The translations under genes were made by a program, and so were the position numbers. Positions 14,695-39,057 of a stretch of DNA of 64,000 nt are shown here, one piece after another. Numbering within the stretch: the stretch's first letter is position 1; every line of letters starts with the position of its first letter. This DNA comes from an uncultured Candidatus Saccharibacteria bacterium (GTDB taxonomy: Bacteria > Patescibacteriota > Saccharimonadia > Saccharimonadales > CAYZZS01): positions 10,081 to 74,080 of the forward strand of contig CAYZZS010000004.1 of the NCBI GenBank assembly GCA_964483035.1. The letters run 5' to 3'. A model generated the notes under the pieces. It was given only the letters and a program-made list of their open reading frames with translations. It was not told the origin of the DNA and did no database searches.

Positions 14695-14754
14695 CAAAAT
14701 AAAACGACCCCGCACAGATGTGCAGAGTCGCGTTTTACTGATTACATTATATCA
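14695..14754 (-). promoter_or_regulatory. Cassette copy 3: extended -10 box followed immediately by an intrinsic terminator
   Basis: The minus strand reads TGATATAAT-GTAATCAGT-AAAACGCGACTCTGCACATCTGTGCGGGGTCG-TTTTATTTT. The TGA is the terminase stop codon. Confidence 0.55.
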
Positions 14755-16944: not shown

Positions 16945-17105
16945 ACATCCTCCTCAAATTGTTCATAATGCCACGTTATAAATAAATCGTAGATGTAATC
17001 GTAATGGTCTTGGTAGTCCATCGGGTGTTCCATAAGCTTTTCCATGTTGTCTCTGACGAACTCGGCCACCTCATTGGCGATAAGCTCCGGTTTGACGATG
17101 TTCAT
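16941..17105 (-). CDS. Small acidic hypothetical protein
   Basis: I trimmed the start to the ATG at 17105 (MNIVKPELIANEV), which overlaps the GT2 stop as ATGA. Confidence 0.45.
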   Translation of the reverse strand: MNIVKPELIANEVAEFVRDNMEKLMEHPMDYQDHYDYIYDLFITWHYEQFEEDV

Positions 17106-17689
17106 ACCCGTACCCCCTTTTTGAAGTAATCCCACGTTAGACTGCCCACTCGTTTGTTGTAGTAGTAGGCATAAATATCGGTGAATTTGCATGTCGGGTT
17201 TTTAGCTAGAAGCTCCCGATGGACTTTTTGATCTTCGTGGATGCGTACAGGATCGGGGCGGATGTCGCCTAAAAACTCACGCCTGATAAACTTGCCGTTA
17301 CCAACCCATCTATTGACGTTCTCTTTGTATATTCTGCGCTTTCGTCCATCGCTATACTGGATGTTATAGAAGACCAAATCTTCTCCCTTGAGCTGGTTAA
17401 TGACTCTATTTACGTCTGGTAGGAAGTAATCATCGCTATCAAGCTGCACGATATAGTCTGCTGTGGCTTCATCCATGAGTCGAGCGAGTGAGTAGCCTAT
17501 ACCCATGTTTTCATCGTTAGATATAAGGGTAATGCTGCGATTGTCGGATAACTTCTCGATGACTTTTAGGGTGTTGTCGGTGCTAGCGTCGTCGCAGACT
17601 AGTACGTTGCAGTTTCTAGGTATGGAGTTGATAGCTTGCCTGATCAATTCCTCTTGGTTGTACACCGGTATGATTACGTCAACGGTCAT
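17102..17689 (-). CDS. Family-2 glycosyltransferase
   Basis: Contains VIIPVYNQEELIRQAINSI...VCDDASTDNT...QLDSDD, a GT-A fold with DxD-type motifs. Confidence 0.8.
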   Translation of the reverse strand: MTVDVIIPVYNQEELIRQAINSIPRNCNVLVCDDASTDNTLKVIEKLSDNRSITLISNDENMGIGYSLARLMDEATADYIVQLDSDDYFLPDVNRVINQLKGEDLVFYNIQYSDGRKRRIYKENVNRWVGNGKFIRREFLGDIRPDPVRIHEDQKVHRELLAKNPTCKFTDIYAYYYNKRVGSLTWDYFKKGVRV

Positions 17690-18402
17690 TTTTCAAACTC
17701 CGAGGGTTCGGGGAAGTGAGTGCGTAGGTCTTCTACCCACCGTCTAGTTGATAGTATCTCGCCCTCTAAGAGCTTGCCTGTGGTCGTCTTGCGGTCTTTG
17801 TACTGTTTACCGCCAATTTTGTAGATGTTTCCGTAGAGGCTCCTGCTGGCTAGTGTCACTCCTGCGGACTCTTGGACCCTCATTATCTCCAGGCGTTTCT
17901 GCTTGTTGTAGATGATTGGCGCATGGACTTCGTAGTTTTTGGGGTCTTTTATTCCTTGTTCAATAAGGAAGTCTCTGGTCTTGGATTTCGTCCTGAGCCA
18001 TGTGTTATGACCCTTGAATTCTTTTAACTTGCCGTCATAGAGTGGTTCTATCTCGATAGGTTTGGTAATGAAGAAGTCGTCATTGAAGAATATGAAGTCA
18101 TCTGCGACTCGTTCGTCATCCAGTATTGCCTTGACCTTGTTCCTGGTGTCTATGGGCTTGATGTGTGAACGCTTGAAGCCGTCAATCATTGTGATCCTGT
18201 CACTAAACCAATCCTCTTTGTCGCCGCACACAAACACTTCACCGTTCCAGTTGGTGATGTTCTTGAGGGAGCGCATGGAGTAACGTAGCTCTTTGCCTTT
18301 GTCGCTAGTGCGCTTGTAGATATAACAGACTGGATATTTCATAATGTTTAGTTGACCCGATTCCGTGCTGACTGCATATATTTGATTGTGTTGGTAGTCC
18401 AC
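17686..18402 (-). CDS. Stealth-family-like sugar-1-phosphate transferase
   Basis: KELRYSMRSLKNITNWNGEVFVCGD and FFNDDFF resemble the Stealth CR2/CR3 blocks as I recall them. The track start is GTG; an ATG at 18342 is an alternative. Confidence 0.5.
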   Translation of the reverse strand: MDYQHNQIYAVSTESGQLNIMKYPVCYIYKRTSDKGKELRYSMRSLKNITNWNGEVFVCGDKEDWFSDRITMIDGFKRSHIKPIDTRNKVKAILDDERVADDFIFFNDDFFITKPIEIEPLYDGKLKEFKGHNTWLRTKSKTRDFLIEQGIKDPKNYEVHAPIIYNKQKRLEIMRVQESAGVTLASRSLYGNIYKIGGKQYKDRKTTTGKLLEGEILSTRRWVEDLRTHFPEPSEFEK

Positions 18403-18690
18403 CGGCTATGCTTGCGAGGTACGAGATGCTTTTAGTAGCCTAATAAAACGCGCTTGCCCCAGCACGGAAGCAGGCCAGCTATTCGCCCTCCCTTTAAGCA
18501 CTAACTAGGAGGCGCAGCGAGTACTCTGCGCCATATAACTGTCTTTGGAGGGTAACCCAAAGTTAGGGATTGCTCCCTAGTTAACGCTCAATTTGTTAGT
18601 TTTCCAGTGATCTGCCCTAAAAATAGCAGATGTAATCAGTTAAACCTAGTGCTAATGGTTACTTTATTGTAAAATATTTGACAAATTATA
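18403..18690 (-). promoter_or_regulatory. Candidate late promoter, ~236-nt structured leader and terminator-like hairpin ahead of the late operon
   Basis: The minus-strand TATAAT is at 18685-18690. Verified local hairpins lie at 18511-18532, 18543-18562 and 18564-18579. The hairpin 18449-18466 is followed on the minus strand by TTTTATT. Confidence 0.45.
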
Positions 18691-18706
18691 CTACTTATGC
18701 TACTAT
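18678..18706 (+). promoter_or_regulatory. Near-consensus sigma70-type promoter (TTGACA-17 nt-TACTAT)
   Basis: TTGACA is at 18678-18683 and TACTAT at 18701-18706. The promoter sits back-to-back with, and overlaps, the minus-strand TATAAT. Confidence 0.6.
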
Positions 18707-18711
18707 GCATA

Positions 18712-18907
18712 CAGTAAGGTTAAGGTATAAAGGATAGATACTACCTTACAAAACAGCCCGGAAAGTATGGGGAACATCAGTCTCCGCAAGACTGTCATTC
18801 GGCGGAATGTTAAACGGTTCCTTTCATCATCCACCAAGGGCTGTTTTTCTTTTATAAAGAAAGAGGCCCAGGGGATAGACCGGCAGAGCCGGAACCTGGG
18901 CTTTTTT
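18712..18907 (+). ncRNA. Candidate phage small RNA 1 (about 139 nt to the first U run, about 196 nt to the second terminator)
   Basis: Starts at CAGTAAGG, 5 nt after the -10 box. Helices: GTAAGGT/ACCTTAC, CAGCCC(18754)/GGGCTG(18838), CAGTC/GACTG. T runs lie at 18844-18848 and 18902-18907. Confidence 0.5.
18856..18907. terminator. Bidirectional intrinsic terminator
   Basis: The GCCCAGG...CCTGGGC stem is flanked by an A run upstream and TTTTTT downstream. Confidence 0.6.
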
Positions 18908-19007
18908 ATTATACGACATGAAATGCGAAATATCTTCTATCTGTTCCCGTAATTCCTTAGTCATAGCTGCTCAAAACCTCCCACTGTAATAACCCATTTG
19001 TCTAACT

Positions 19008-19038
19008 ATCAAAAATAGAAAAGAGCCCGAAGGCTCTC
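19008..19038 (-). terminator. Intrinsic terminator closing the upstream (early/middle) minus-strand operon
   Basis: The minus strand reads AGAGCCTTCGGGCTCTTTTCTATTTTT. Confidence 0.6.
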
Positions 19039-19259
19039 TTACGCTCGTCTGGAATAACACTATTCTAGCACGAGGCAAGCTTAAGGTACACAGAAATCCT
19101 GATAATAGAAATGGGAGCTGTATGCTCAGCTCCCAGCGTTCTTGGAAAGTGCCATTATTATAGCATTTTCTAGTTCGTCACGCACCACATTCCCGTAGGT
19201 GCTAATTAAAGGTACCCTATCACTGGGCGCCAGGGTTTTGTTTGCTCTGAATTATACTC

Positions 19260-19694
19260 TCATTCACTTCGAGATACAGATTTAATCGTATTTATAACAC
19301 TCGAAACATTCGTTTTTATATTTGGCGTTTTTACGGAGATACTTTGACCAGGTAAGTTGATTTTTACTCTATCACTCATCTCTGCCCCCCCATCTAGTTC
19401 TTTGCGAAGGGTGGCTAGGCGTAATTCATCAGCTCTCTCCATCTGGTCAACCGCTTCTTCAAAGCCAGCCTTAAAGTCAAAGGATTCGTTCATCCCAAGC
19501 ACAAGGCTTTTAGGTCGCTCCAGCTCATCAATCCTTGCCAGCTTCTCAAGGTTTGAGATGAGGGCTTTAATAGCGTCTACTTGGTAGTTAAGCGCCTTTT
19601 CTTCGTCCATACCGCCAGCGCTAGTGTCCATGTTGTATGTGTAGAAACAGTGCTTGATTGAGTCTTCTAGCTCGTCTGTAGTGTTTTTGCTCAT
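19260..19694 (-). CDS. Acidic hypothetical protein
   Basis: 144-aa ORF, the last gene before the terminator. It contains a G7 run (plus-strand C7 at 19385-19391). Confidence 0.5.
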   Translation of the reverse strand: MSKNTTDELEDSIKHCFYTYNMDTSAGGMDEEKALNYQVDAIKALISNLEKLARIDELERPKSLVLGMNESFDFKAGFEEAVDQMERADELRLATLRKELDGGAEMSDRVKINLPGQSISVKTPNIKTNVSSVINTIKSVSRSE

Positions 19695-19948: not shown

Positions 19949-20289
19949 AGCTCTGCCTCTATTTTGGCTATCACTTCTCTAATATCATGCAGCGCCAGCC
20001 TGTAACCGTGCTGCTTCTCTGGCATATGATAGCCGTACCTGGTGGTTAGCTGTTCAGCGGTTGGCATTGACTTGTCTAGCTCTGCTAATAGCTTTAGCTT
20101 TTCGGTGCGGATGAGGTCTAGTAGCTCTTCCTTGGCTGTAGCAAATATCTCGATGTGGCGCTCATCTTGCCACATGGTGTCACTTGCTCCATCAGTAAAC
20201 GCCTGCGATAGTATTTCATCGAGCGTCCGTAGTTCATCTTCACTAGCTTGATTGGTGTCTGTGCTAGTCATCATATCGCCTGTTCTCAA
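19945..20289 (-). CDS. Small acidic hypothetical protein (TDTNQASED N-terminus)
   Basis: 114 aa in the track. The likely start is the MMTSTDTNQ at about 20274. Confidence 0.5.
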   Translation of the reverse strand: MRTGDMMTSTDTNQASEDELRTLDEILSQAFTDGASDTMWQDERHIEIFATAKEELLDLIRTEKLKLLAELDKSMPTAEQLTTRYGYHMPEKQHGYRLALHDIREVIAKIEAEL

Positions 20290-20515
20290 TTTCCTGCTCT
20301 AGCTGTTCTGTTGTATATAGCTTTAGGCTATCAACAGAGCGTGAGTATCCACTGTTTTCAATGCGGTCATCTATTATGCTGGCATAACGACTAATGATTG
20401 TGCCTGTGCCACGCTCACTCCTGTTACCCTCTATCTCGTTTTGCATATTCCATAAAAGCTTAAAGATAGGTCGCTTATCTTCACTAGCTTGATTGGTGTC
20501 TGTGGGGCTGCTCAT
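20264..20515 (-). CDS. Small hypothetical protein (TDTNQASED N-terminus)
   Basis: 83 aa. It shares a perfect 28-nt block with the next gene. Confidence 0.5.
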   Translation of the reverse strand: MSSPTDTNQASEDKRPIFKLLWNMQNEIEGNRSERGTGTIISRYASIIDDRIENSGYSRSVDSLKLYTTEQLEQEIENRRYDD

Positions 20516-29133: not shown

Positions 29134-29562
29134 TCAAGAAAACATACCCCGATCAGGATTAAAGTTCTCCCAATCGATATCTTGCCACTGTAGAATCACA
29201 GTTGGCAGGCTTGAGAACTCGGTCTCCAGCAGATCACGATTAGGATCTTCGGGTATTATTAGCCCCTTGGTTTGCATGTCAATTCGGCCTTCACGCCGCA
29301 CGAAGTCGTAATGCAATGCCAGCCACTTCAGGCTTTCGTGGTCCGCAAAATCTTCCGGTGATTCAGCGATAAAAAACTGTACCATAAGCTCGCCAACACC
29401 GGAGGTTTGCAGGGCGGCATGCACGGATACTTCTTCTTTGAACCGATGGTATGCCGCAGGAGTAAGGGTGGTTACGTGCCTGCCGTGGTACAGTGCGTCC
29501 ATCACGGCAAAGCTATGCTCTATAGGCTTCTCGGCTTTATTGCGCGGCACTTCGCCAGTCAT
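29134..29562 (-). CDS. Hypothetical protein
   Basis: 142-aa ORF with a 4-nt overlap with der. Confidence 0.55.
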   Translation of the reverse strand: MTGEVPRNKAEKPIEHSFAVMDALYHGRHVTTLTPAAYHRFKEEVSVHAALQTSGVGELMVQFFIAESPEDFADHESLKWLALHYDFVRREGRIDMQTKGLIIPEDPNRDLLETEFSSLPTVILQWQDIDWENFNPDRGMFS

Positions 29563-30911
29563 TTAGTTCCCGTCGGCTTTTCGCCGTGCTTATGTGTCAC
29601 GCGCTTTTCGATGAACCAGAACTTGATCGGTGTGCCGGTATAATCCCACACTTCGCGGAACTGCTTGTCCATGAATCGCTTGTAGCTCCAGTGCAGAAAC
29701 TTGGTGTGGGCGCCGAAGACCTTGAAGCTGGGGTTCGGATTGCCTTCTTCTTGTACTATGTAATTCAGCTTTGGTTCACGGTTCTTTAGTCCGGCTGGCG
29801 GGTGCATGCTGACGACCCTCCGCAGCCATTTGTTGAGCTCACGAGTCGGTATGCTTTGCTGGCGCCGCTCTGCGATCTCTAGCGTCAGATCAAACAGTTT
29901 AGTGACATTCTGACCAGTTACAGAACTTGTAAAGATTAGGGGTGCCCACGGCACAAAGGTGAAATTATGCTGGATTTGCGGCGCGATAGCATCCCGGGTA
30001 AAGGCATCTTTGTCGATGCTGTCCCACTTGCTGACGACCAGGATCAGTCCCTTGCCCGATTCCTTTATCATGCCGGCTATTTTCTGATCCAGGGCAACGT
30101 TCAGTTCATTGGCATCCATCAGCAGTAGGACGACGTCGGCTTGCTCGATAGCAGAGAGCGAGCGGATGACGCTGAACCGCTCCACACCTTGCCCGATTTT
30201 GCCGCTGCGTCGTATGCCGGCCGTGTCCAGTAGTTCTATCTCGTGCTTTTTGTAATTAATAACCGTCCGGTTGATGTCGCGCGTCGTACCGGCTCGGTCC
30301 GCGACAATTGCCTGCTGCTTTTTGGCCAGGGCGTTAAAGAGTGCCGACTTGCCGACATTCGGACGGCCGAGAATGGCCAGCCGGATCCGGTTTTCATCTT
30401 CGTCGATGCGCGCCGGCGGGATTTCCTGTAGCAGCTGCTCCAGCAGATCCTCAATGCCCCGGTTCTGGGTGGCGCTGGTTGTGATAATGGTCTTAATGCC
30501 CAGCTTTTGGAACTCGGTGATGTCTTTGCCCCTGGCCCGGTCGATTTTATTTACCACCAAAAAGACCGGTTTTTTGGTCTTGAGCGCCATTTTGGCGACA
30601 CGGCGATCTTCTTCGGTAATGATTGTGTTTGCCTCGATTACGACCCAGATTACATCGGCGCTGTCTGCGGCCTGCTGGATCTGCTCCTGGATGGTAAATT
30701 CAAAGTCGTCTTCCGGGTCCTTGATGCCGGCGGTATCAACCAGCCAGAAGTCGCGGTCCTCGTAACTGGCCTTGGCTATGATGCTGTCGCGCGTCGTGCC
30801 CGGTTCATTGGCGACGATGGCTTCGCGGCGCGAAAGGATGGCGTTAAACAAGCTGGACTTGCCAACATTTGCTCTGCCTACGATTGCGACAATCGGTACT
30901 TTTCTTGCCAT
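29559..30911 (-). CDS. der: Ribosome-associated GTPase Der/EngA
   Basis: Two G domains (GRANVGKSSLFN and GRPNVGKSALFN) plus a KH-like C-terminus. I moved the start to MARKVPIVAIVG at 30911, which avoids overlap with the upstream gene. Confidence 0.9.
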   Translation of the reverse strand: MARKVPIVAIVGRANVGKSSLFNAILSRREAIVANEPGTTRDSIIAKASYEDRDFWLVDTAGIKDPEDDFEFTIQEQIQQAADSADVIWVVIEANTIITEEDRRVAKMALKTKKPVFLVVNKIDRARGKDITEFQKLGIKTIITTSATQNRGIEDLLEQLLQEIPPARIDEDENRIRLAILGRPNVGKSALFNALAKKQQAIVADRAGTTRDINRTVINYKKHEIELLDTAGIRRSGKIGQGVERFSVIRSLSAIEQADVVLLLMDANELNVALDQKIAGMIKESGKGLILVVSKWDSIDKDAFTRDAIAPQIQHNFTFVPWAPLIFTSSVTGQNVTKLFDLTLEIAERRQQSIPTRELNKWLRRVVSMHPPAGLKNREPKLNYIVQEEGNPNPSFKVFGAHTKFLHWSYKRFMDKQFREVWDYTGTPIKFWFIEKRVTHKHGEKPTGTK

Positions 30912-30915
30912 GGTG

Positions 30916-31542
30916 TTATTGTACTCCACTAACAGCGTGTTGATCGGCTGCCGCGTATTCGAGCAGGCCGTTTTGCAGCATCCCGGCGCTGATAGCCGGC
31001 AGGGTCTCGGTAATAAAGTCTTCAAACGGACAGAGTTGCTTGCGGTCTAGGCTTAAATGGTCGTAGTACCCTAAGTCCTCTGCGTTAAACGCAAAGAATT
31101 GTTCGCTGCCCTGTTCGATATGAGCCAGACTTTTCGGCGGCTGATAAAAGTACTCCGGGCGCAGACCGTAGGTCCGTTCGATGATGTGGGCAGCCAGCGC
31201 CCTGCGTCGGGTGAGTGAGCGCACGGTATCCAGGCTGATCTCATGCTGAATGGCGCTTTGGAATACCGCCGGGGCATCGTGGGCAGGCATTCTGAACGAT
31301 AGTGCGGCCCGGCCGACAAACGCAGCCATGACATCAATGCCGTTTTCAATATCGCGCTCTCGTTCTTTTGGCATAAAACCGTCTCGCAGCAGAATTCTCT
31401 GGACGATGGGCTCTGAGATAGCAAACGCTGAGGCCGCCACGAACTCGCCCATATCGTGCGGCTTCTGATCGGGCGCCAGCGTAAATGTACTGGCGCGCAA
31501 AGCAATTTGCTCTGCTACCTTCGGCAGCGTGGAGTGAATCAT
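30916..31542 (-). CDS. Hypothetical protein
   Basis: 208-aa ORF in the same operon. Confidence 0.55.
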   Translation of the reverse strand: MIHSTLPKVAEQIALRASTFTLAPDQKPHDMGEFVAASAFAISEPIVQRILLRDGFMPKERERDIENGIDVMAAFVGRAALSFRMPAHDAPAVFQSAIQHEISLDTVRSLTRRRALAAHIIERTYGLRPEYFYQPPKSLAHIEQGSEQFFAFNAEDLGYYDHLSLDRKQLCPFEDFITETLPAISAGMLQNGLLEYAAADQHAVSGVQ

Positions 31543-32210
31543 TTAGATAACTTTACAACAATTTCCTTGAATTTACCAGACTTTAGATCGTCTAATTTGT
31601 AGGTACCGAACTGCGTGCGGTGCAAGGCCGTGACCTTATAGTCTAGGCTCATGAAGGTCCGGCGGATTTGCCGGTTCCTGCCCATACTGATTATCACGCG
31701 CCAGCGCTGCCTGTCATCACTCATCGGTGCTAGCCGTAGTCTACTGATGTAATCATCGATCGCTATACCCTGCTCTAGTTTGCTTATGTCCGCTGGCAAG
31801 AGCGGTTTGTCGATAGTTACTTCATAAACTTTATCTTTAGCGTAACGGGGGTGGGTTAGCTGGTTTGCCAGGTCTCCATCGTCGGTTAGCAGTAGTAATC
31901 CCGAAGAGTCTTTGTCCAGGCGGCCGACTGGTTTGAGGCGGCTGTAGGCTGCCGGTAGCAGATCATACACGGTCTTGCTGCCCTGGCCTTCCCGGGATAC
32001 TACGTAGCCCACAGGTTTATGAAGCATGATGGTTGTGAGGCTAGGTAGCGATACGGGTTTTCCATCAAACGAAACCTGATCTGATTCATGGACTATGCTG
32101 CCAGTTTCGGCTGGCGTACCATTGATAGCCGCTCTTCCCTGCTCTACCGCCGTGTCAGCAGCACGCCGACTCATGCCAGTTGCGAGTGCTAGGTATTTAT
32201 TGATTCGCAT
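31539..32210 (-). CDS. rRNA pseudouridine synthase (RsuA/RluB family, S4 domain)
   Basis: Has an S4-like N-terminus (MRINKYLA...) and GRLDKDSSGLLLLTDDGDLANQLTHPRY. Confidence 0.85.
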   Translation of the reverse strand: MRINKYLALATGMSRRAADTAVEQGRAAINGTPAETGSIVHESDQVSFDGKPVSLPSLTTIMLHKPVGYVVSREGQGSKTVYDLLPAAYSRLKPVGRLDKDSSGLLLLTDDGDLANQLTHPRYAKDKVYEVTIDKPLLPADISKLEQGIAIDDYISRLRLAPMSDDRQRWRVIISMGRNRQIRRTFMSLDYKVTALHRTQFGTYKLDDLKSGKFKEIVVKLSK

Positions 32211-32251
32211 GATTTACTAAAAGTATACCCGAAAGTGCGGAGGTTAGTGGC

Positions 32252-33352
32252 ATGTCCCGGCCGTATGAACATATAGGAAAGCCAAGTCCTGAGGCAGTAT
32301 TCCAGCGCACCCGAGATGCCCTCGGGGTGCCGCAGGAGCGCGAGTTGGAGCGGGGCCTACCCGAGAGTGCCGTATTGTTTGAGCGATTTCCCCACCGCTT
32401 TTTGCCAACAATCGGTGTCGAGATCGAACTGCAGCATTCGCAGCTGGATCACCGTGTCGGTTGGTATATGGAGAATGATGTTGCCTATCATGATTTGCCG
32501 GAGTGGAAACAGCGCGAACTCCAGCCCATTTTCCAGGATATTGACGATAAGTGGCTGCCCCGCCTGGCGGCACTTGAAAAGGCCCGGCTGCGGCTTGGAA
32601 ATGATTCATATAAGGAAGTTATTACGCCGCCGTATTACTACAATGCTACCCTAGCTAGGCTCACGAATTATCTGTTTGATACTGGAGTTCTTCCCGAGGG
32701 CGGTGCTCACCCACTACACATTACCTTAGGCGGCATTGATATTGGTGAGTATGATGACGCACTGCACTCACTGGCACGGATGGTTGAGCTGCTCGAAGGC
32801 AGTACGCATCATCGGGTTGCGACACCTATGCATACTAGTAAGCCTCACTGGACACAGAAATCCGCAACTGGCTATCTGAAGAGAAGTTCTCAGGAGCTTG
32901 CAGGCGGTGTGTCCGGTCTGGAGCTACGGGCTCTGCAAGCTAGTGATGCTCAGCAGCTCGCGAGAGTGTTGTGGCGGGCGCAATGGTTGGGTGCTGAGCT
33001 GAATGCGTGGCTGCAATCTACCGAGGAAGAACGGCAACACCCTTCCCTGATTGACCATCCTGATGAGTATGATCGTCAACTGCTTGTGACGGGCTGGAAT
33101 GGTATGGTGAAGTTTATGACAGAAGTGTATGAGTTAAATGGTGTGGATTTTGATTCGAATTGGGGCGGACCGCTTGAGAATCCGCAAGTGTGGTACGTGC
33201 AAATGGGACTTTGCAGTACTACGATGCAGAATCAGGATTTCAAGTCGAGACTGTGCCTTGCTGTTGACGATGCGCTAGAGAGTGTAGAGATAGGTGTCCT
33301 AACGCATCATCGGTTCGCGTGTATGCGCCAGGGCTATCTGCCTGCTAAATAG
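32252..33352 (+). CDS. Hypothetical protein (possibly amidoligase-like)
   Basis: 366 aa. TIGVEIELQH resembles the amidoligase N-terminal strand. The assignment is weak. Confidence 0.5.
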   Translation: MSRPYEHIGKPSPEAVFQRTRDALGVPQERELERGLPESAVLFERFPHRFLPTIGVEIELQHSQLDHRVGWYMENDVAYHDLPEWKQRELQPIFQDIDDKWLPRLAALEKARLRLGNDSYKEVITPPYYYNATLARLTNYLFDTGVLPEGGAHPLHITLGGIDIGEYDDALHSLARMVELLEGSTHHRVATPMHTSKPHWTQKSATGYLKRSSQELAGGVSGLELRALQASDAQQLARVLWRAQWLGAELNAWLQSTEEERQHPSLIDHPDEYDRQLLVTGWNGMVKFMTEVYELNGVDFDSNWGGPLENPQVWYVQMGLCSTTMQNQDFKSRLCLAVDDALESVEIGVLTHHRFACMRQGYLPAK

Positions 33353-35207
33353 CTATGGAGCTAGGATCGGGCTTAGCGGGCTGGGCAGGTGCTGCCGGGC
33401 CTGGGTCGGGAGCTGGAGCGGGAGCCGGCTGCTGGCTTGCAGCGTAAATTTCATTGCCGGGCGGCACTACACCATTTGTTGCTGCCTGAGGGGCGGCGGG
33501 TAATTGCATGCCGGCTTCGCGTAATTCTTCCTGCTCGAGCAGCTTGTTTAGGTCTGTCTTTGGAGCGCTGATATCGGTAATGGGTTGAATGACTTTCTTG
33601 TTTGCTATGTGAACGGCACTGGTTTCCGAGCCCGAACTTGTATCCGTACCGGGCTGAGCGGCTTGTGGTTCAGCTGCTGGGGCTGCTGGCTCCGGTGTTG
33701 GGATGGCCGGTTGCGGTGGAGCTGGCTGGACTGCAGCAGGTTCACTTGGCGCTACCGGAGGGGCTTGCGGTGCTGGGTCGGCAGGCTGAGCGGCTTGTGG
33801 TTCGGTAGGGGCAGCCGGCTGCTGATCAGCAAAAGGCTCTACTGCTACCGGAGGCTGCGTTGCTGCAGCTGTCTCCGGTGCCGGTTCGGCAGAGGTGGTG
33901 ATTGTCGGATTGCTGGCTAAGAAGTCATTAATCTGCTGATTGATCAGCGCCTCTTCCGTTGCAGTTGTTTGCGTTAAGGTCGGGTCAATGTCCGCACCTG
34001 GAGTGGCAGGCGCAGGTACTTGCTGAGGGGTGTCAACTGTGTCAGCAGGCGCTGGTGCCTTGCTGGCTACAGCTTCCGTTTGTCCGGTCGTCATGTCCGG
34101 TGCGGGAGTGGACTCGGCTACAGCTGGCATAGCTGCTGTATCAGCGCTTGGAGTGACAGTGGCTGCCGGAGCTGCTTCCAGTACCGGAGGCTTTTCAGAG
34201 GCAAGTGTTGTGACGGGTTCAGGTTCCGGAATGGGATCGACAGGCACCGCTGGGGCAGCTGGGGTTTGTACTGCCTGTAAGGTTGGTGCTAAATCAGCGC
34301 TCGGGGCTGCTGCCGGAGGCTGCATGGTGGCGGCTGTCATGTCGGTAGCCATAGCTGGGGCTTGCTGCATTACTGCTGGCTGTGCGGGAGGTGTAGCTGG
34401 TTCCGGGGTGACAACAGTACTCGCAGAGGGATCCTGCGGTGCGGTGGCTGCAGGAGTAGGCTGATCAAGAGGTGCGGCCGGTGCTACCACAGGGGCAGCC
34501 GGCAATGCTCCATCTTGGACCGGAGCTGGTGCTGCTGGCTGCGTGCCGTCAAGGTTGGGTAGCTGCAATTCGGGTGCCTGAGGTTGCGGTGTAGGCTCGG
34601 TAGTGGGCTGAGGTTGAGGTACTGCCTGGTCTGCTGGAGCTGTAGCAGCTGGAGGTTCAGCAGGTAGCGCGGATGGCTCGGCTGCTGCTTCGGTCACAAC
34701 TGGCGGCGGAGCCGCTGGCTGCAATCCTGGATCGAATGAGTTTTGCTGGGTCGGCGAAGAAGGCAAAGCTGCCTGAGGGGCATCTGCCGGCATCTGGTCT
34801 CTGTCGGCAGCGGAAGCCGCTGCTTCCGGTGATGGAGCGTCGCCTTCGAGTACTTCGCGGGCTACTTTGGCTACATCCTCCAGGGTGACCTGGGATTTGA
34901 CCAGGTAGCGGTCAGCACCAAGCTTGTCAGCTCGAGTTTTATCCTCTACCTGACTAAGAGCGGTCATCATAATAACCTTGGTATTCTTGGTTTCAGGCGT
35001 GCTGCGCAGGATATCGAGCATGTCAAAGCCGCTAATCTTGGGCATCATGATGTCAGATATAATCAAGTCCGGACGTTCCTTAACTGCAAGAGCTAGGGCT
35101 TCTTCTCCATCTTTGGCGGACACGATTTGGTAGCCTTCGGCAAGCAGTCTTGCCTCGTAAATCTCACGAAGGTTATTGTCGTCCTCGACGAGCATTATTT
35201 TTGCCAT
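33345..35207 (-). CDS. Response-regulator receiver domain fused to a ~490-aa Pro/Ala/Thr/Gln-rich low-complexity tail
   Basis: The REC domain reads MAKIMLVEDD...DLIISDIMMPKISGFD...MMTAL. No recognisable output domain follows. Confidence 0.8.
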   Translation of the reverse strand: MAKIMLVEDDNNLREIYEARLLAEGYQIVSAKDGEEALALAVKERPDLIISDIMMPKISGFDMLDILRSTPETKNTKVIMMTALSQVEDKTRADKLGADRYLVKSQVTLEDVAKVAREVLEGDAPSPEAAASAADRDQMPADAPQAALPSSPTQQNSFDPGLQPAAPPPVVTEAAAEPSALPAEPPAATAPADQAVPQPQPTTEPTPQPQAPELQLPNLDGTQPAAPAPVQDGALPAAPVVAPAAPLDQPTPAATAPQDPSASTVVTPEPATPPAQPAVMQQAPAMATDMTAATMQPPAAAPSADLAPTLQAVQTPAAPAVPVDPIPEPEPVTTLASEKPPVLEAAPAATVTPSADTAAMPAVAESTPAPDMTTGQTEAVASKAPAPADTVDTPQQVPAPATPGADIDPTLTQTTATEEALINQQINDFLASNPTITTSAEPAPETAAATQPPVAVEPFADQQPAAPTEPQAAQPADPAPQAPPVAPSEPAAVQPAPPQPAIPTPEPAAPAAEPQAAQPGTDTSSGSETSAVHIANKKVIQPITDISAPKTDLNKLLEQEELREAGMQLPAAPQAATNGVVPPGNEIYAASQQPAPAPAPDPGPAAPAQPAKPDPSSIAI

Positions 35208-35333
35208 GTTCGGTGCCCCTGTTTCATTGGATTGTTGTTACGCTTTTCCTTAATTGTAGCATAAGTATTTTCGCTATAAAGTCCACAGAATTTGGGTGGA
35301 TTTCAGGGGGTTGTGTAGAAATTTCTATAGGCA

Positions 35334-37142
35334 TTACATCCCCAGGAAGGCGCCGGGCGTTTGATTGACAGGAGTTGCATCAGCTGGCTGTGTGGCCAGG
35401 ATTTCCGTTGCTTTCTGTGTTGATAGCCGAGGTAAGTTGATGTAAAAAGTACTACCGCTTCCCAGCTTGCTTTCCACCCAGATGCGGCCATTGTACAGTT
35501 CAATGATTTTTCGGCAGATGAATAAGCCTAAGCCCGTTCCGCCGGTAGTGCGGGTACTGGAGTTGTCTACCCGATAAAACTTCTGGAAAAGGTGCGGTAT
35601 ATCTTCTCCGGCAATACCAGGACCGGTGTCGCGGATGTAGAACTGAACGATGGAATTGTCGCCAGTGAGGCCAATGGTGATTTTGCCAGTGTCGGTATAT
35701 TTAACAGCATTATCAAAGAGATTGGTGATGACTTCACGGATGCGGTCCGGATCGACAAGAGTGTAGTACAGTGGCTTGACGACTTTGCTGCTGGCGGCAT
35801 TGGCCGGACTGCTGGCGTCGATCATGGTGTGTCCGCCGCCAATAATATATTCGATGTATAGGCCCTTCTTTTGGGCGGAGAACTTAAGGTCTTCAACCAG
35901 TTTCTCTAAGTATTCGCCCATCTCCACGACTACCGGATGGTTGCTAATGCGGCCGTCCTCGGCTTTGGCGGATGCTAGCAGGTCTTGGAATAGCTTGCCA
36001 AGGTGCTGTGTTGAGGAGTGGGCCTTCTCAAGGTAGGTGCGGGCATTGCTGTCGACGCGGCTGACGCTGGGATTGAGCGCCAGCGCTAGATAGCCCTCGA
36101 TGGCTGCGACGGGTGTGCGCATTTCATGAGAGGCGGTACTGATAAATTCGGCACGGCGAGCTTCTTCATCGCGCTCTTTACTGACGTCACGGAAGACGGC
36201 TATCAGGCTACCGGTGTCTCTGCCCTCGGCGTCGAGCAGTGCTGAGGTGTCTATGACGATAGGTACGTATTTGCCTGATTTCGTTTCCAGTACGGCATCA
36301 TTGTCGCGAACATGGGTTTTGGCACGGCGAGCCTTTTGCAGGGGGTCCTGCTCCTCATTGTATGGTTTCCGTTCTTCAGTGCAGAGCTTAAGTACATTGC
36401 GGTAATCCAGGTTGATTGCATCCTGCGTCGACCAGCCAATGATTTTGCTGGCGCCGGGATTCAAGTAGCTGATAATGTTTGAGGTGTCGACCACTACTAC
36501 GCCGTCGTTCATTGAGTTAAGTATGAAGTCGGATTTGAGCTGTTCTTTCTTCAGTTGTCCGGCGAGGCCGAGCTCGTTGTTGACAGTTTGCGGCATGAAT
36601 GTTCGCCAGATAAGCCAGCCTGCCACGGCAGTAATAAAGGTGACGGTAAGTGTGGCCCCCATCATGCTGCCACTATCTTGCTGGTCGTACACACCGAGCA
36701 AAACCAGGAGCGTGCCCAGAGCGGTCAGCGCGACCGGCAGTGCGGCGCCGTACACACCCAGCATGCCGCCAAAGAACGAGAAGATGACTACCAAGCCGAA
36801 GAATGGCGAGTCATAGCCACCGGTTACGCCCACAGCCAGTAGGCAAATGTGCAGCGTCAGATAATAGGTAATGAAGTATGAACTCCAGATACTGTAGCGC
36901 CGCACGAATGGCAGAGCCCCAATTGAATAAACCAATGTCGCCAGCGCTATGGCTGGTGACACAAGGGATGTCCCAGCATGCGAGATTAGGAAGTTGAGCG
37001 GCTCCAGCAGGCGGCCGGCAATGTGCAAGCCAAGAATAAGCAAGGCAAAAACTGTATATACCAAGTTTAGCCTGCGCAGCCAGGTTTCGGGTACGTGTTT
37101 CATTTTCGGAATATGCCCACCGCTAAGGTTTATCATAACCAT
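35334..37142 (-). CDS. Membrane sensor histidine kinase (multi-TM, PAS-like, HisKA, HATPase)
   Basis: Contains FISTASHEMRTPVAAIEGY and DTGPGIAGEDIPHLFQKFYRVD...GGTGLGL. Confidence 0.9.
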   Translation of the reverse strand: MVMINLSGGHIPKMKHVPETWLRRLNLVYTVFALLILGLHIAGRLLEPLNFLISHAGTSLVSPAIALATLVYSIGALPFVRRYSIWSSYFITYYLTLHICLLAVGVTGGYDSPFFGLVVIFSFFGGMLGVYGAALPVALTALGTLLVLLGVYDQQDSGSMMGATLTVTFITAVAGWLIWRTFMPQTVNNELGLAGQLKKEQLKSDFILNSMNDGVVVVDTSNIISYLNPGASKIIGWSTQDAINLDYRNVLKLCTEERKPYNEEQDPLQKARRAKTHVRDNDAVLETKSGKYVPIVIDTSALLDAEGRDTGSLIAVFRDVSKERDEEARRAEFISTASHEMRTPVAAIEGYLALALNPSVSRVDSNARTYLEKAHSSTQHLGKLFQDLLASAKAEDGRISNHPVVVEMGEYLEKLVEDLKFSAQKKGLYIEYIIGGGHTMIDASSPANAASSKVVKPLYYTLVDPDRIREVITNLFDNAVKYTDTGKITIGLTGDNSIVQFYIRDTGPGIAGEDIPHLFQKFYRVDNSSTRTTGGTGLGLFICRKIIELYNGRIWVESKLGSGSTFYINLPRLSTQKATEILATQPADATPVNQTPGAFLGM

Positions 37143-37263
37143 TATCTATCGTTTGCCGTACTATTACAAATCGGGACCGTACTGGATTATTTACCGAAGT
37201 TATGCTACACTCTCCCCTGTTCTGTTTTTTGTACAATTAACATGTAACATGCAGGCTCGTAAC

Positions 37264-37338
37264 GGCCTCATCGTCTAGCGGTTAGGACACCGGGTTCTCA
37301 TCCCGGCAACCGGGGTTCGATTCCCCGTGAGGTCACCA
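37264..37338 (+). tRNA. tRNA-Glu (anticodon CUC), CCA encoded
   Basis: Cloverleaf built by hand: acceptor GGCCTCA/TGAGGTC, anticodon stem CCGGG/CCCGG with loop TTCTCAT, and T arm CGGGG-TTCGATT-CCCCG. Confidence 0.85.
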
Positions 37339-38833
37339 AAAGAGACTCATTTGACATAGATGGGTCTTTTTTCATGCTTGCTAAGGTGTAAAGTGTGCTT
37401 AATTTGGGCGTTCGAAATTTATTTGTAGTCAGGTCGTATTCAAGCCCTTCTGGAAAGACTAGACGTTGGTAGATTATTTGATGTTCTATCGAGGCGTTAC
37501 TCCAAATTCGTGGTGCGTTCGACATAAAACGCATCGCATAATCTATTGCATCAGTTTTTAGTTCAGATAAAGAGCCGATACTGGTAAGGTCTTCCTGTAC
37601 AGCATCAGACTCAATCTTTATCTTAGCTACAAGGTCCTTCTTCTCATCTACTGTTATCTGTCCTGCAACAAGCATTTCTACAACCTTATTTCTTCGCTCT
37701 GTAAGCTGTTCTAAGACCTTGTGGAGCTTCTTTTGTTTACTGCTTAGGGTTTGCGTCTCTTCACGCCAGACACGTACTATTATCTCTTTTAAGAACTTCT
37801 CCATATCTGGGTCAGGAGTTAGTGATGACAGCAGTTGCAAGAATTGTTCATGTAGCTCTATTGTCTGTACAGATGGGACATGACACCTAGAACAGTGGTA
37901 ACGCGGAGAACGCTTACCCGATCCACCGACTGGACTACTGCCAGTCATATACTTATTACAATTTGCACACACGAGGAAACGTCTCAGAGGAAATTCAGGA
38001 TTATTCTTCTTGTATGTAGCAGCAGTGTTTTTGTTGCTTCTCAGTAGCTCTTGATTACGGTGAAATGTTGCAGGAGTAATAATCCCTTTGAATTTTGAAG
38101 GTATGAGCTGACCCTCTGTGTGACTACTTTGTTCAAGTCCTGCATAGATAGGATTACGCAACATCTTGCTTAGTGCCTGTATCTGCATCGGCTTGCCTGT
38201 AGCAGATTTCAACCCGATACTTTCACACAGCTTAATAAGACTAGCGATTGTGTAGGTACCTGTTGCGTATACTTCTAATACAGTAACCACCTTATCTGCT
38301 ACCCCCTCTACAGGTGCAAGCGTGGATTTCTCAAGTACATCTCTCACATTTCTCAGGCCGTGAGGTGCTTTACTCATACGCCAGCCCTCTTTTGCGTGGG
38401 CTTTCATGTTGTCTTTCACACGGACAGACTTAACCTTGTTGTCATGTTGAGCTAGTACAGCTTCTAAGTTCTGGATAAGCTCCTCATTAACGCTATCCTC
38501 AACACCTGAGTTGATATTCTTGTACTGAACACCTAATTTAGATAACAAGGTGCGTAGTGCGAAAAAGTCTGAAGCATTACGTGTTAGACGGTCTGTCTGG
38601 TATGTGATGAGATAGTGTATGTTACCCTTGTTCGCTTCAAGATACGCTAACATCTCTTTCATGGCAGGACGGTCGAGGGTTTTGGCCGATACACCGTCAT
38701 CGTGGTAGATTTCTTTAACCAGTACATCATTACGTGATGCCCAATCCTGACATAGCTTTTGCTGGATATCGAGACTAGCACCCTCTACTTGTTGAGTAGT
38801 TGATACCCGAAGATAAATAACTGCTTTTTTCAT
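37298..38833 (-). CDS. Large serine recombinase (integrase)
   Basis: The resolvase-type N-terminus is KKAVIYLRVSTTQQ. A recombinase domain, a zinc ribbon (CANCNKYMTG...RYHCSRC) and a coiled coil follow. Confidence 0.9.
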   Translation of the reverse strand: MKKAVIYLRVSTTQQVEGASLDIQQKLCQDWASRNDVLVKEIYHDDGVSAKTLDRPAMKEMLAYLEANKGNIHYLITYQTDRLTRNASDFFALRTLLSKLGVQYKNINSGVEDSVNEELIQNLEAVLAQHDNKVKSVRVKDNMKAHAKEGWRMSKAPHGLRNVRDVLEKSTLAPVEGVADKVVTVLEVYATGTYTIASLIKLCESIGLKSATGKPMQIQALSKMLRNPIYAGLEQSSHTEGQLIPSKFKGIITPATFHRNQELLRSNKNTAATYKKNNPEFPLRRFLVCANCNKYMTGSSPVGGSGKRSPRYHCSRCHVPSVQTIELHEQFLQLLSSLTPDPDMEKFLKEIIVRVWREETQTLSSKQKKLHKVLEQLTERRNKVVEMLVAGQITVDEKKDLVAKIKIESDAVQEDLTSIGSLSELKTDAIDYAMRFMSNAPRIWSNASIEHQIIYQRLVFPEGLEYDLTTNKFRTPKLSTLYTLASMKKDPSMSNESLLVTSRGIEPRLPG

Positions 38834-39057
38834 AGTGATGTTATTCCTGCGCTTTCAATAGTAGCATTATTTTTGATATTTTTCGAACTAATATACGTGC
38901 GAATAGAAAGCCTGACTACTGTTTCAGTAGCTCGTATTAGTACTTCTAACTCTTCTTTGGTTAGTTCTTTTGATATTTGGCCTAAGAGCTTTCGAGCTTC
39001 TTTGACCGTTATGACCTGCTGGTCATTTATATTGAGTGGTTCTTTTTGTTGTTCCAC
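38830..39057 (-). CDS. Small protein upstream of and coupled to the recombinase (possible DNA-binding or directionality factor)
   Basis: 75 aa; overlaps the integrase start as ATGA. Confidence 0.45.
   Translation of the reverse strand: MEQQKEPLNINDQQVITVKEARKLLGQISKELTKEELEVLIRATETVVRLSIRTYISSKNIKNNATIESAGITSL

Follow-up and report, generated by a model that had tools for sequence, protein, structure and literature searches.

A two-turn RNA helix is the classical substrate of RNase III. At the lambda N-leader site the structure covers the ribosome-binding region, and its cleavage by RNase III alters translation. Leader stems of this kind (lambda N, T7 R sites) provide one of the closest likenesses to the RNA element described here, which directly precedes a Stealth-like gene at the head of a late operon. 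The operon belongs to a prophage-like region in a 64,000-nt stretch of contig CAYZZS010000004.1 (an uncultured Candidatus Saccharibacteria bacterium); the whole of this stretch is hereafter called the window. As in the RNase III leader stems, a helix of about two turns is built from distant segments of a phage leader. Plain RNase III sites, however, have neither a long conserved unpaired sequence nor a covarying inner hairpin, both of which are present here, and cleavage of the element is only proposed.

Structured leader RNAs also act in antitermination. The put RNA is ∼70 nt long, consists of two tandem stem-loops and lies downstream of a promoter (PMC9378689). Like the element, put of phage HK022 is a cis-acting structured RNA of a phage leader, located upstream of terminators and read on the nascent transcript (PMC9378689); it brings about factor-independent read-through via the zinc-binding domain of the RNA polymerase β′ subunit. 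It differs in that it has no long closing helix, no tie to a start codon and two copies per genome. The element, in contrast, is a single copy of 102–142 nt that abuts a gene start, is composed of a closing helix of ∼20 bp and one inner hairpin, and has no sequence similarity to put. RNAs of the conAn2/EAR type are alike in being large structured RNAs near the head of long operons with internal terminators (PMC8191782), but no ConAn1-like partner was identified in this phage and a comparable function of the element is putative. No match to the EAR model was found, EAR being a family that is presumably held in Rfam. EAR is associated with exopolysaccharide genes.

Two further systems bear comparison. 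The lambda PR′–6S–tR′/Q arrangement has its counterpart in the window in promoters that are directly followed by terminators ahead of late genes; it differs in that several such cassettes occur per genome here and in that no Q-like gene was recognised. Translational riboswitches, and operators that sequester ribosome-binding sites, resemble the element in having a closing helix whose 3′ strand overlaps the initiation region and a conserved core inside. The closing helix of the element is nonetheless far longer and more stable, and no switching helix is supported.

A conserved RNA element before the Stealth-like gene

The genes of the prophage-like region are on the minus strand, and the leader under study lies in a 920-nt gap without long open reading frames (ORFs) at 19259–18343. 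A preliminary description of this DNA had seen here a structured, regulatory-type leader that starts at a weak promoter and ends in a terminator, with the first ORF (GTG 18402) beginning ∼40 nt after the terminator hairpin. Homologues refute that start: the Stealth-like gene begins at ATG 18342, the N-terminus MKYP being conserved in 24 homologues. The ∼60 nt at 18402–18343 are therefore untranslated leader and part of the RNA element. Of that element, the stretch first described overlaps two-thirds, on the 5′ side.

Relatives of the locus, designated by L numbers, are contigs that encode homologues of the Stealth-like protein with 50–71% identity, all from uncultivated samples. Most of them have 140–700 nt of non-coding DNA before the Stealth-like gene, within which the only block conserved among relatives abuts the start codon; sequence further upstream is unrelated. 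The parts of the block, and the gene that follows it, are these:

18351..18479, minus strand: the whole conserved RNA element, 129 nt here and 102–142 nt in relatives
18460..18479, minus strand: 5′ strand of helix P1, GCUGGCCUGCUUCCGUGCUG, inner GCUG invariant
18441..18451, minus strand: conserved single-stranded joiner, GCGUUUUAUUA, containing the U-tract of the terminator put forward earlier
18436..18440, minus strand: 5′ strand of helix P2, GGCUA
18416..18433, minus strand: conserved core of the P2 loop, AAAAGCAUCUCGUACCUC, consensus AAAAGCRUCUCGYACCUU
18404..18408, minus strand: 3′ strand of P2, UAGCC
18371..18402, minus strand: variable region between P2 and the P1 3′ strand, 9–44 nt in relatives
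18351..18370, minus strand: 3′ strand of P1, CAGCACGGAAUCGGGUCAAC, ending 8 nt before the ATG and overlapping the ribosome-binding region
17686..18342, minus strand: Stealth_CR2-like gene, 218 aa, always the downstream neighbour of the RNA element

P1 is a long-range helix of ∼20 bp that joins 18479–18460 to 18370–18351: its inner GCUG/CAGC is invariant and the remainder varies by compensation. A short non-conserved spacer directly follows its 5′ strand. The pairs of P2 differ among relatives (GGCCAU/AUGGCC, GGCG/CGCC, GGCCU/AGGCC, GGUCAC/GUGACC and GGCUGC/GUGGCC), and the variable region at 18371–18402 holds an optional small hairpin (GGUGGACUACC in the window). In all, ∼35 conserved unpaired nt are framed by covarying helices. 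Across sequences the gap between the 3′ strand of P1 and the start codon measures 1–15 nt, and any Shine-Dalgarno sequence lies within this strand; in L003, L005 and L002 it carries GAGG, GGAG or AGGG.

The fold was tested on 8 distinct sequences from one uncultivated clade, L004 being identical to the window within the block. The curated alignment is ungapped, with variable parts trimmed by hand, and the strands of P1 were entered as fixed 20-mers anchored on the invariant GCUG/CAGC, which leaves no freedom to fit P1. From this alignment RNAalifold predicted both P1 and P2; from an unedited MAFFT alignment it predicted P1, with 12 of 19 pairs compensatory. Pairing was found in 89% of cells of the curated alignment as against 31–45% when the partner column was slid by 1–3 positions, compensatory changes affect 16 of the 25 pairs, and none of 500 shuffles reached any of five measures. 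Thirteen of the 20 pairs of P1 show compensatory changes (87% of cells paired), as do three of the five pairs of P2 (97.5% paired). Folding of single sequences returned P1 in all 8, and P2 as well in 5. The block in the window (18479–18351) also folds better than its shuffles (z = −2.5).

Other pairings fared less well. A possible mini-hairpin of three pairs in the P2 loop is weakly backed (87.5% paired, equalled by 65 of 500 shuffles). Neither a U4:A4 pseudoknot nor a pairing between the P1 5′ strand and the P2 loop shows covariation, although both can form; the candidate alternatives are formable in 75–84% of cells, with no covariation and no excess over shuffles. Comparison of homologous leaders by RNAalifold and pair counts supports P1 and P2 but not the terminator stem, and of the leader first described it is the conserved non-coding RNA that is borne out rather than a layout ending in a terminator.

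P1 could also be viewed as a pair of 20-bp inverted repeats acting in DNA, either as the ends of a miniature transposable element or as a protein binding or packaging site. The repeats are terminal, lie ∼100 nt apart and are close to terminase genes, as such a view would have it. Against it, they change by compensatory substitutions with 21 G-U pairs to 8 A-C mismatches on the sense strand, and the structure is therefore that of the sense RNA; conservation is lowest at the outer ends and highest at the inner ends, opposite to what is seen in transposon ends; and each relative has one copy only, always in the same place. We regard a DNA-level role as extremely improbable, and the reading as a miniature inverted-repeat transposable element (MITE) or DNA site was rejected on the G-U asymmetry and the single copy in the window and in each relative.

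Distribution of the element

The element always accompanies the Stealth-like gene, whereas the upstream neighbour and the other operon genes vary. A covariance model (R1) built from the alignment gave the window copy, the only one in the window, 45.2 bits; the model did not find the element in 40 loci with more distant Stealth homologues. Protein searches in collections of viruses, metagenomes and genomes yielded Stealth homologues that were all distant (≤46% identity), none with the element. BLAST searches found nothing matching the leader in cultured phages, plasmids or E. coli genomes, and no close relative of this phage was found among them. Three pattern scans of IMG/VR for the conserved core gave chance matches in coding sequence only; the match designated L177/L178 was rejected since it lies inside a 543-aa ORF. 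The Rfam search suggested for this leader matched no family to the element: Rfam 15 gave no hit on 18351–18479 at gathering thresholds or at E up to 10, and none on 8 relatives at E up to 5.

Two relatives do without the element. In L008 the Stealth-like gene overlaps the upstream ORF, and in L001 an extended −10 promoter and a terminator stand directly before the gene, with no element within 124 nt upstream.

Judged by sequence comparison, the element is a new structured RNA motif of a phage late-operon leader, supported by covariation and absent from Rfam.

Proposed control of the Stealth-like gene in cis

Because P1 reaches with its 3′ strand to within 1–15 nt of the ATG and takes in any Shine-Dalgarno sequence that is present, we propose, with confidence evenly balanced, that the element controls translation or processing of the Stealth-like gene in cis. 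Once transcribed, P1 would lock the translation-initiation region of the first late gene: alone it is worth −30 kcal/mol in the window and −20 to −31 kcal/mol in relatives. The Stealth-like gene would then be expressed only after P1 had been opened or cut. An RNase III-type enzyme might cleave the two-turn helix; P1 has 20 bp with 1–3 mismatches in all 8 sequences, the size (about two turns) of an RNase III substrate. Alternatively, P1 might be opened by a ribosome terminating on a stop codon at its base, or by a factor that binds the conserved loops. That the joiner and loop are unpaired yet conserved implies a partner, which could be a protein or ligand, or else a tertiary contact inside the RNA.

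The stop codon in question is the following:

18481..18483, minus strand: UAG, the last base of which is position 1 of P1

A stop codon at the same offset is present in 7 of the 8 sequences (the window and equivalent positions in L002, L003, L005, L169, L172 and L173), with four UAG, two UAA and one UGA; that all three occur suggests that the stop function is kept rather than one sequence. In the fold, stop and start are neighbours, with the start codon 1–15 nt beyond the other end of the helix. Upstream ORFs end on this stop in L003, L172, L173 and perhaps L169; none does so in the window, L002 or L005, for which reason coupling to an upstream ORF was rejected as a universal mechanism. The pattern could reflect coupling or shunting across the helix, a stop barrier that protects the fold, or a conserved UAR motif. 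In a prokaryotic shunt, a ribosome that terminates at the base of P1 would be handed to the start codon, skipping ∼100 nt, without a Shine-Dalgarno sequence; half of the downstream genes have no recognisable one. We consider this decidedly doubtful. The CaMV 35S shunt and the coat–replicase coupling of MS2 are alike in that the 5′ base of a stable stem carries a stop codon, with the next start just past its 3′ base; they differ in that the upstream ORF ending on that stop is missing here in 3 of 8 sequences.

A riboswitch is another reading, in which the joiner and P2 loop would bind a ligand, for example a nucleotide-sugar related to the glycosyltransferases encoded downstream, and binding would stabilise P1 and shut off translation. 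The conserved unpaired bases between covarying helices, the overlap of the P1 3′ strand with the ribosome-binding region, as in translational OFF switches, and the tie to one enzyme gene all agree with this. A P1 of ∼20 bp at these energies is, however, far more stable than a ligand-gated P1, no alternative pairing is backed by covariation, Rfam yields no riboswitch even at E up to 10, and the conserved bases lie mostly in a terminal loop instead of a multi-helix junction. A riboswitch therefore seems rather improbable.

The same stable helix raises the prospect of an excised small RNA, in which a double-strand-specific RNase would cut P1 and free a stable RNA of ∼90–110 nt, with conserved single-stranded loops that act in trans on targets in the host or phage. 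Here a two-turn helix does enclose a compact domain and the conserved loops could be seed regions, but fixed attachment to the same start codon is left unexplained and there is one copy per genome, in one clade only; we find this, too, distinctly unlikely.

Several points weigh against control in cis as well. The mechanism is drawn from anatomy, and from 8 distinct sequences of one clade in a hand-trimmed alignment. A 20-bp helix is too stable for a simple reversible switch. In the half of downstream genes that have no recognisable Shine-Dalgarno sequence the target of occlusion is less clear, and the window, L002 and L005 have no upstream ORF that ends on the stop. Many conserved unpaired bases are unexplained by occlusion alone and point to a partner. 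Finally, the host is probably Gram-positive, judging from a sortase, and action of RNase III on P1 is only presumed. With the element, phage late-gene control would gain a so far uncatalogued class of structured RNA, one tied to glycosyltransferase genes ahead of terminase, in a position shared with the Stealth-like homologues of mycobacteriophages.

The terminator-like hairpin

The hairpin with which the leader had been thought to end is as follows:

18449..18466, minus strand: CGUGCU-GGGGCA-AGCGCG, a local alternative to P1 in this lineage only

It is certainly present: a terminator scan reports CGTGCTGGGGCAAGCGCG plus TTTTATTAGG at 18466–18449, and the CGUGC/GCGCG stem followed by UUUUAUU proves to have 6 pairs, one of them G-U, with a stability of −8.9 kcal/mol. 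Clear terminators nearby (T1, T2 and that at 14731, see below) are stronger, at −12.4 to −20.3 kcal/mol. The hairpin is not conserved in relatives. Across the 8 sequences 62.5% of the cells of this stem are paired, which equals the shuffled mean, with zero compensatory changes, and its central pair can form in the window only (1 of 8). The 5′ arm (CGUGCU) is columns 14–19 of the P1 5′ strand, while the spacer and conserved joiner hold the 3′ arm and U-tract. A leader with a terminator at its end is also a misfit, since P1 closes ∼100 nt later at the ribosome-binding region.

These data bear on the model that was first proposed, in which transcription from a promoter at 18690 yields a leader ending at the terminator (18466–18440), an attenuator or riboswitch platform that gives rise to an RNA of ∼240 nt. 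The hairpin and U-tract do exist, five of the 8 sequences keep the U-rich GUUUUAU, the leader is more stably folded than shuffles, and identity between the window and L004 starts ∼12 nt past a −10-like hexamer (see below). Yet the stem is weak and not conserved, is devoid of covariation and is followed by only four U residues; in every relative its 5′ arm is engaged in P1; L005, L171 and L173 have no uninterrupted run of four U residues and L005 and L172 have no stem; and the promoter has a poor −35 and sits inside a stronger promoter on the opposite strand. We judge this model highly unlikely.

The hairpin is not what selection kept: what is kept is the U-rich joiner, and this as sequence. 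The hairpin forms before the 3′ strand of P1 is transcribed and could serve as a pause or leaky stop in this lineage. Under control in cis it would be no more than that, formed when the P1 5′ strand pairs differently in this lineage.

A motif, CGCGTTTTA, had been said to be common to this hairpin and to three cassettes elsewhere in the operon. It is carried by the direct-repeat family of the cassettes, but on the transcribed minus strand the cassette repeat reads GTAAAACGCG and the match fails; on that strand cassettes and element share only CGUUUUAUU, which is like the tail of a terminator.

The upstream leader and the putative promoter at 18690

Two further features lie upstream of the element:

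18480..18680, minus strand: upstream leader domain, with hairpins 18579–18564, 18562–18543, 18532–18511 and 18631–18610
18685..18690, minus strand: TATAAT, with a poor −35 and no TG extension

The first three hairpins, which had been recognised by hand, recur in the minimum free energy (MFE) fold. The 201 nt at 18680–18480 fold better than dinucleotide shuffles, of which 3 in 200 did as well (z = −2.5), and the 200 nt upstream of the element likewise beat shuffles in 4 of 6 other relatives, with no excess in 2; these stretches have no sequence in common. Conservation of the three hairpins is seen only in the near-identical L004: 18673–18480 is common only to the window and L004, at ∼93% identity, which is too little variation to test the hairpins and makes the comparison uninformative. 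The hairpin at 18631–18610 is absent in L004. A weak full-length alignment to Rfam IMES-2 just upstream of the element (18482–18587, minus strand) scored 14.6 bits where gathering requires 54.7 (E = 0.6 for 1.2 kb searched) and was treated as chance, as it is far below the gathering score and absent in relatives.

The weak promoter is there as described in so far as TATAAT and a poor −35 are present, but its role is doubtful: the hexamer is the reverse complement of the spacer in a better, near-consensus promoter on the plus strand (TTGACA-17-TACTAT with an upstream TG, 18678–18706). Identity between the window and L004 starts ∼12 nt downstream of a −10-like hexamer in both (TATAAT in the window, TATAGT in L004), a shared border that gives mild support for a start site near 18678. 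The L004 Stealth-like protein is otherwise 58% identical to that of the window, and from leader identity of ∼93% against 58% in the protein it follows that the two phages are mosaic.

The plus-strand promoter is directed away from the late operon, and a terminator-like hairpin is found at 18885–18904. Together (18678–18912) they could produce an RNA of ∼200 nt antisense to the long leader. The same stretch overlaps a basic ORF of 61 aa (18767–18952) and runs antisense to 18964–18827, where an ORF of 45 aa has a Shine-Dalgarno sequence.

Promoter and terminator cassettes

Better candidates for the late promoter than 18690 are predicted further upstream, at 19165–19019, where two cassettes of promoter and terminator are found. 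Others lie within the operon and in relatives:

19102..19165, minus strand: extended −10 promoter TGCTATAAT (19165–19157), then terminator T1 (19135–19112, −16.8 kcal/mol) and tail
19010..19070, minus strand: promoter TGCTAGAAT (19070–19062), then terminator T2 (19040–19019) and tail
14754–14704, minus strand: cassette before the portal gene, terminator 14731–14704
9195–9116, minus strand: cassette inside the operon, terminator 9136–9116
2036–1985, minus strand: cassette inside the operon, terminator about 2010–1985
63–115 of L001: cassette before the Stealth-like gene
2462–2408 of L004, minus strand: cassette before a tRNA gene

The pattern is one of an extended −10 (TGnTATAAT), a strong intrinsic terminator 11–25 nt on, and then a gene (portal or other late blocks); T1 starts within 25 nt of the TGCTATAAT promoter. 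CGCG(G)ACUCU...GGGGUC is common to several of the terminator stems, the window contains TGNTATAAT 8 times where 2.0 would be expected, and the T2 unit (window 19101–19004) has a 100% identical copy in L004. The layout looks like promoter-proximal conditional termination. The likeness to lambda PR′/6S/tR′ that had been claimed for 18690–18440 does not hold there, but such a layout exists at 19165–19010, 14754, 9195 and 2036, and the late promoter and terminator logic of the prophage is thus likely to be relocated to these repeated cassettes. No Q-like protein was identified: the nearest upstream ORF has no Pfam or PHROG match and essentially no homologues, no Cys or Zn motif, and a single-sequence structure model that is uninformative (pLDDT 42).

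19260–19694: 144-aa ORF upstream of the gap, for which no annotation was obtained

The terminators inside the operon (14731–14704, 9136–9116 and about 2010–1985) invite a reading in which the P1–P2 RNA, in the manner of HK022 put, EAR or conAn2, stays bound to its polymerase as a processive antitermination RNA and lets the polymerase read through them. One conserved structured RNA does head a long operon with strong internal terminators, and an RNA that touches a protein surface would be expected to have many conserved unpaired bases, as this one does. Precedents are at hand: put acts from up to 270 nt downstream of the promoter and over >10 kb (PMC9378689), and large antitermination RNAs are known in Gram-positive mobile elements (PMC8191782). 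Each internal terminator, however, has its own extended −10 promoter just upstream, which suggests loading at promoters and not at one RNA site. L001 has the same gene order and a cassette directly before the gene with no element in the 124 nt upstream, and L008 is also without the element. The tight, invariant abutment to one start codon has no purpose in antitermination, and where put is two tandem stem-loops of ∼70 nt, a closing helix of ∼20 bp here encloses the rest. Antitermination by the element is, in our view, unlikely.

Genes around the leader

The operon genes were correctly named in the preliminary description (Stealth-like, family-2 glycosyltransferase (GT2), terminase). After the Stealth-like gene come the GT2 gene, small ORFs, the small and large terminase subunits and portal. 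Stealth-like genes lie shortly ahead of terminase genes, with varying partners (window 17102–18342; L005, L008 and L169; mycobacteriophages): GT2; Glyco_transf_7C and Methyltransf_21; or a TAGT-like glycosyltransferase and nitroreductase. This composition suggests that the Stealth-like gene and its partners may form a cassette modifying virion or DNA. Homologues of the Stealth-like protein in cultured phages are actinobacteriophage genes only (∼30% identity), and in most of the Mycobacterium phages the homologue is gene 6, near the left genome end.

Mosaicism between L004 and the window is sharp, with module borders at the leader. In L004, the closest relative (1223–2140, 2170–2267 and 2277–2347), a transposase of the IS1595 family lies just upstream; a tRNA gene on the opposite strand stands where the window has small ORFs, and the GT2 gene is absent. 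In the window, the small ORFs upstream of the gap contain a direct repeat of 35 nt (20229–20263 and 20470–20504, 91% identity, 241 nt apart).

The host flank, with a sortase and a large serine recombinase, suggests a Gram-positive host on gene content. From roughly 29.5 kb the G+C content climbs to about 54% (window 29500–38900). The prophage boundary may not be at tRNA-Glu (37264–37338), or else the stretch with a sensor histidine kinase may be cargo: the kinase gene (35334–37142) is located between phage-like genes and the serine recombinase (37298–38833) and tRNA-Glu.

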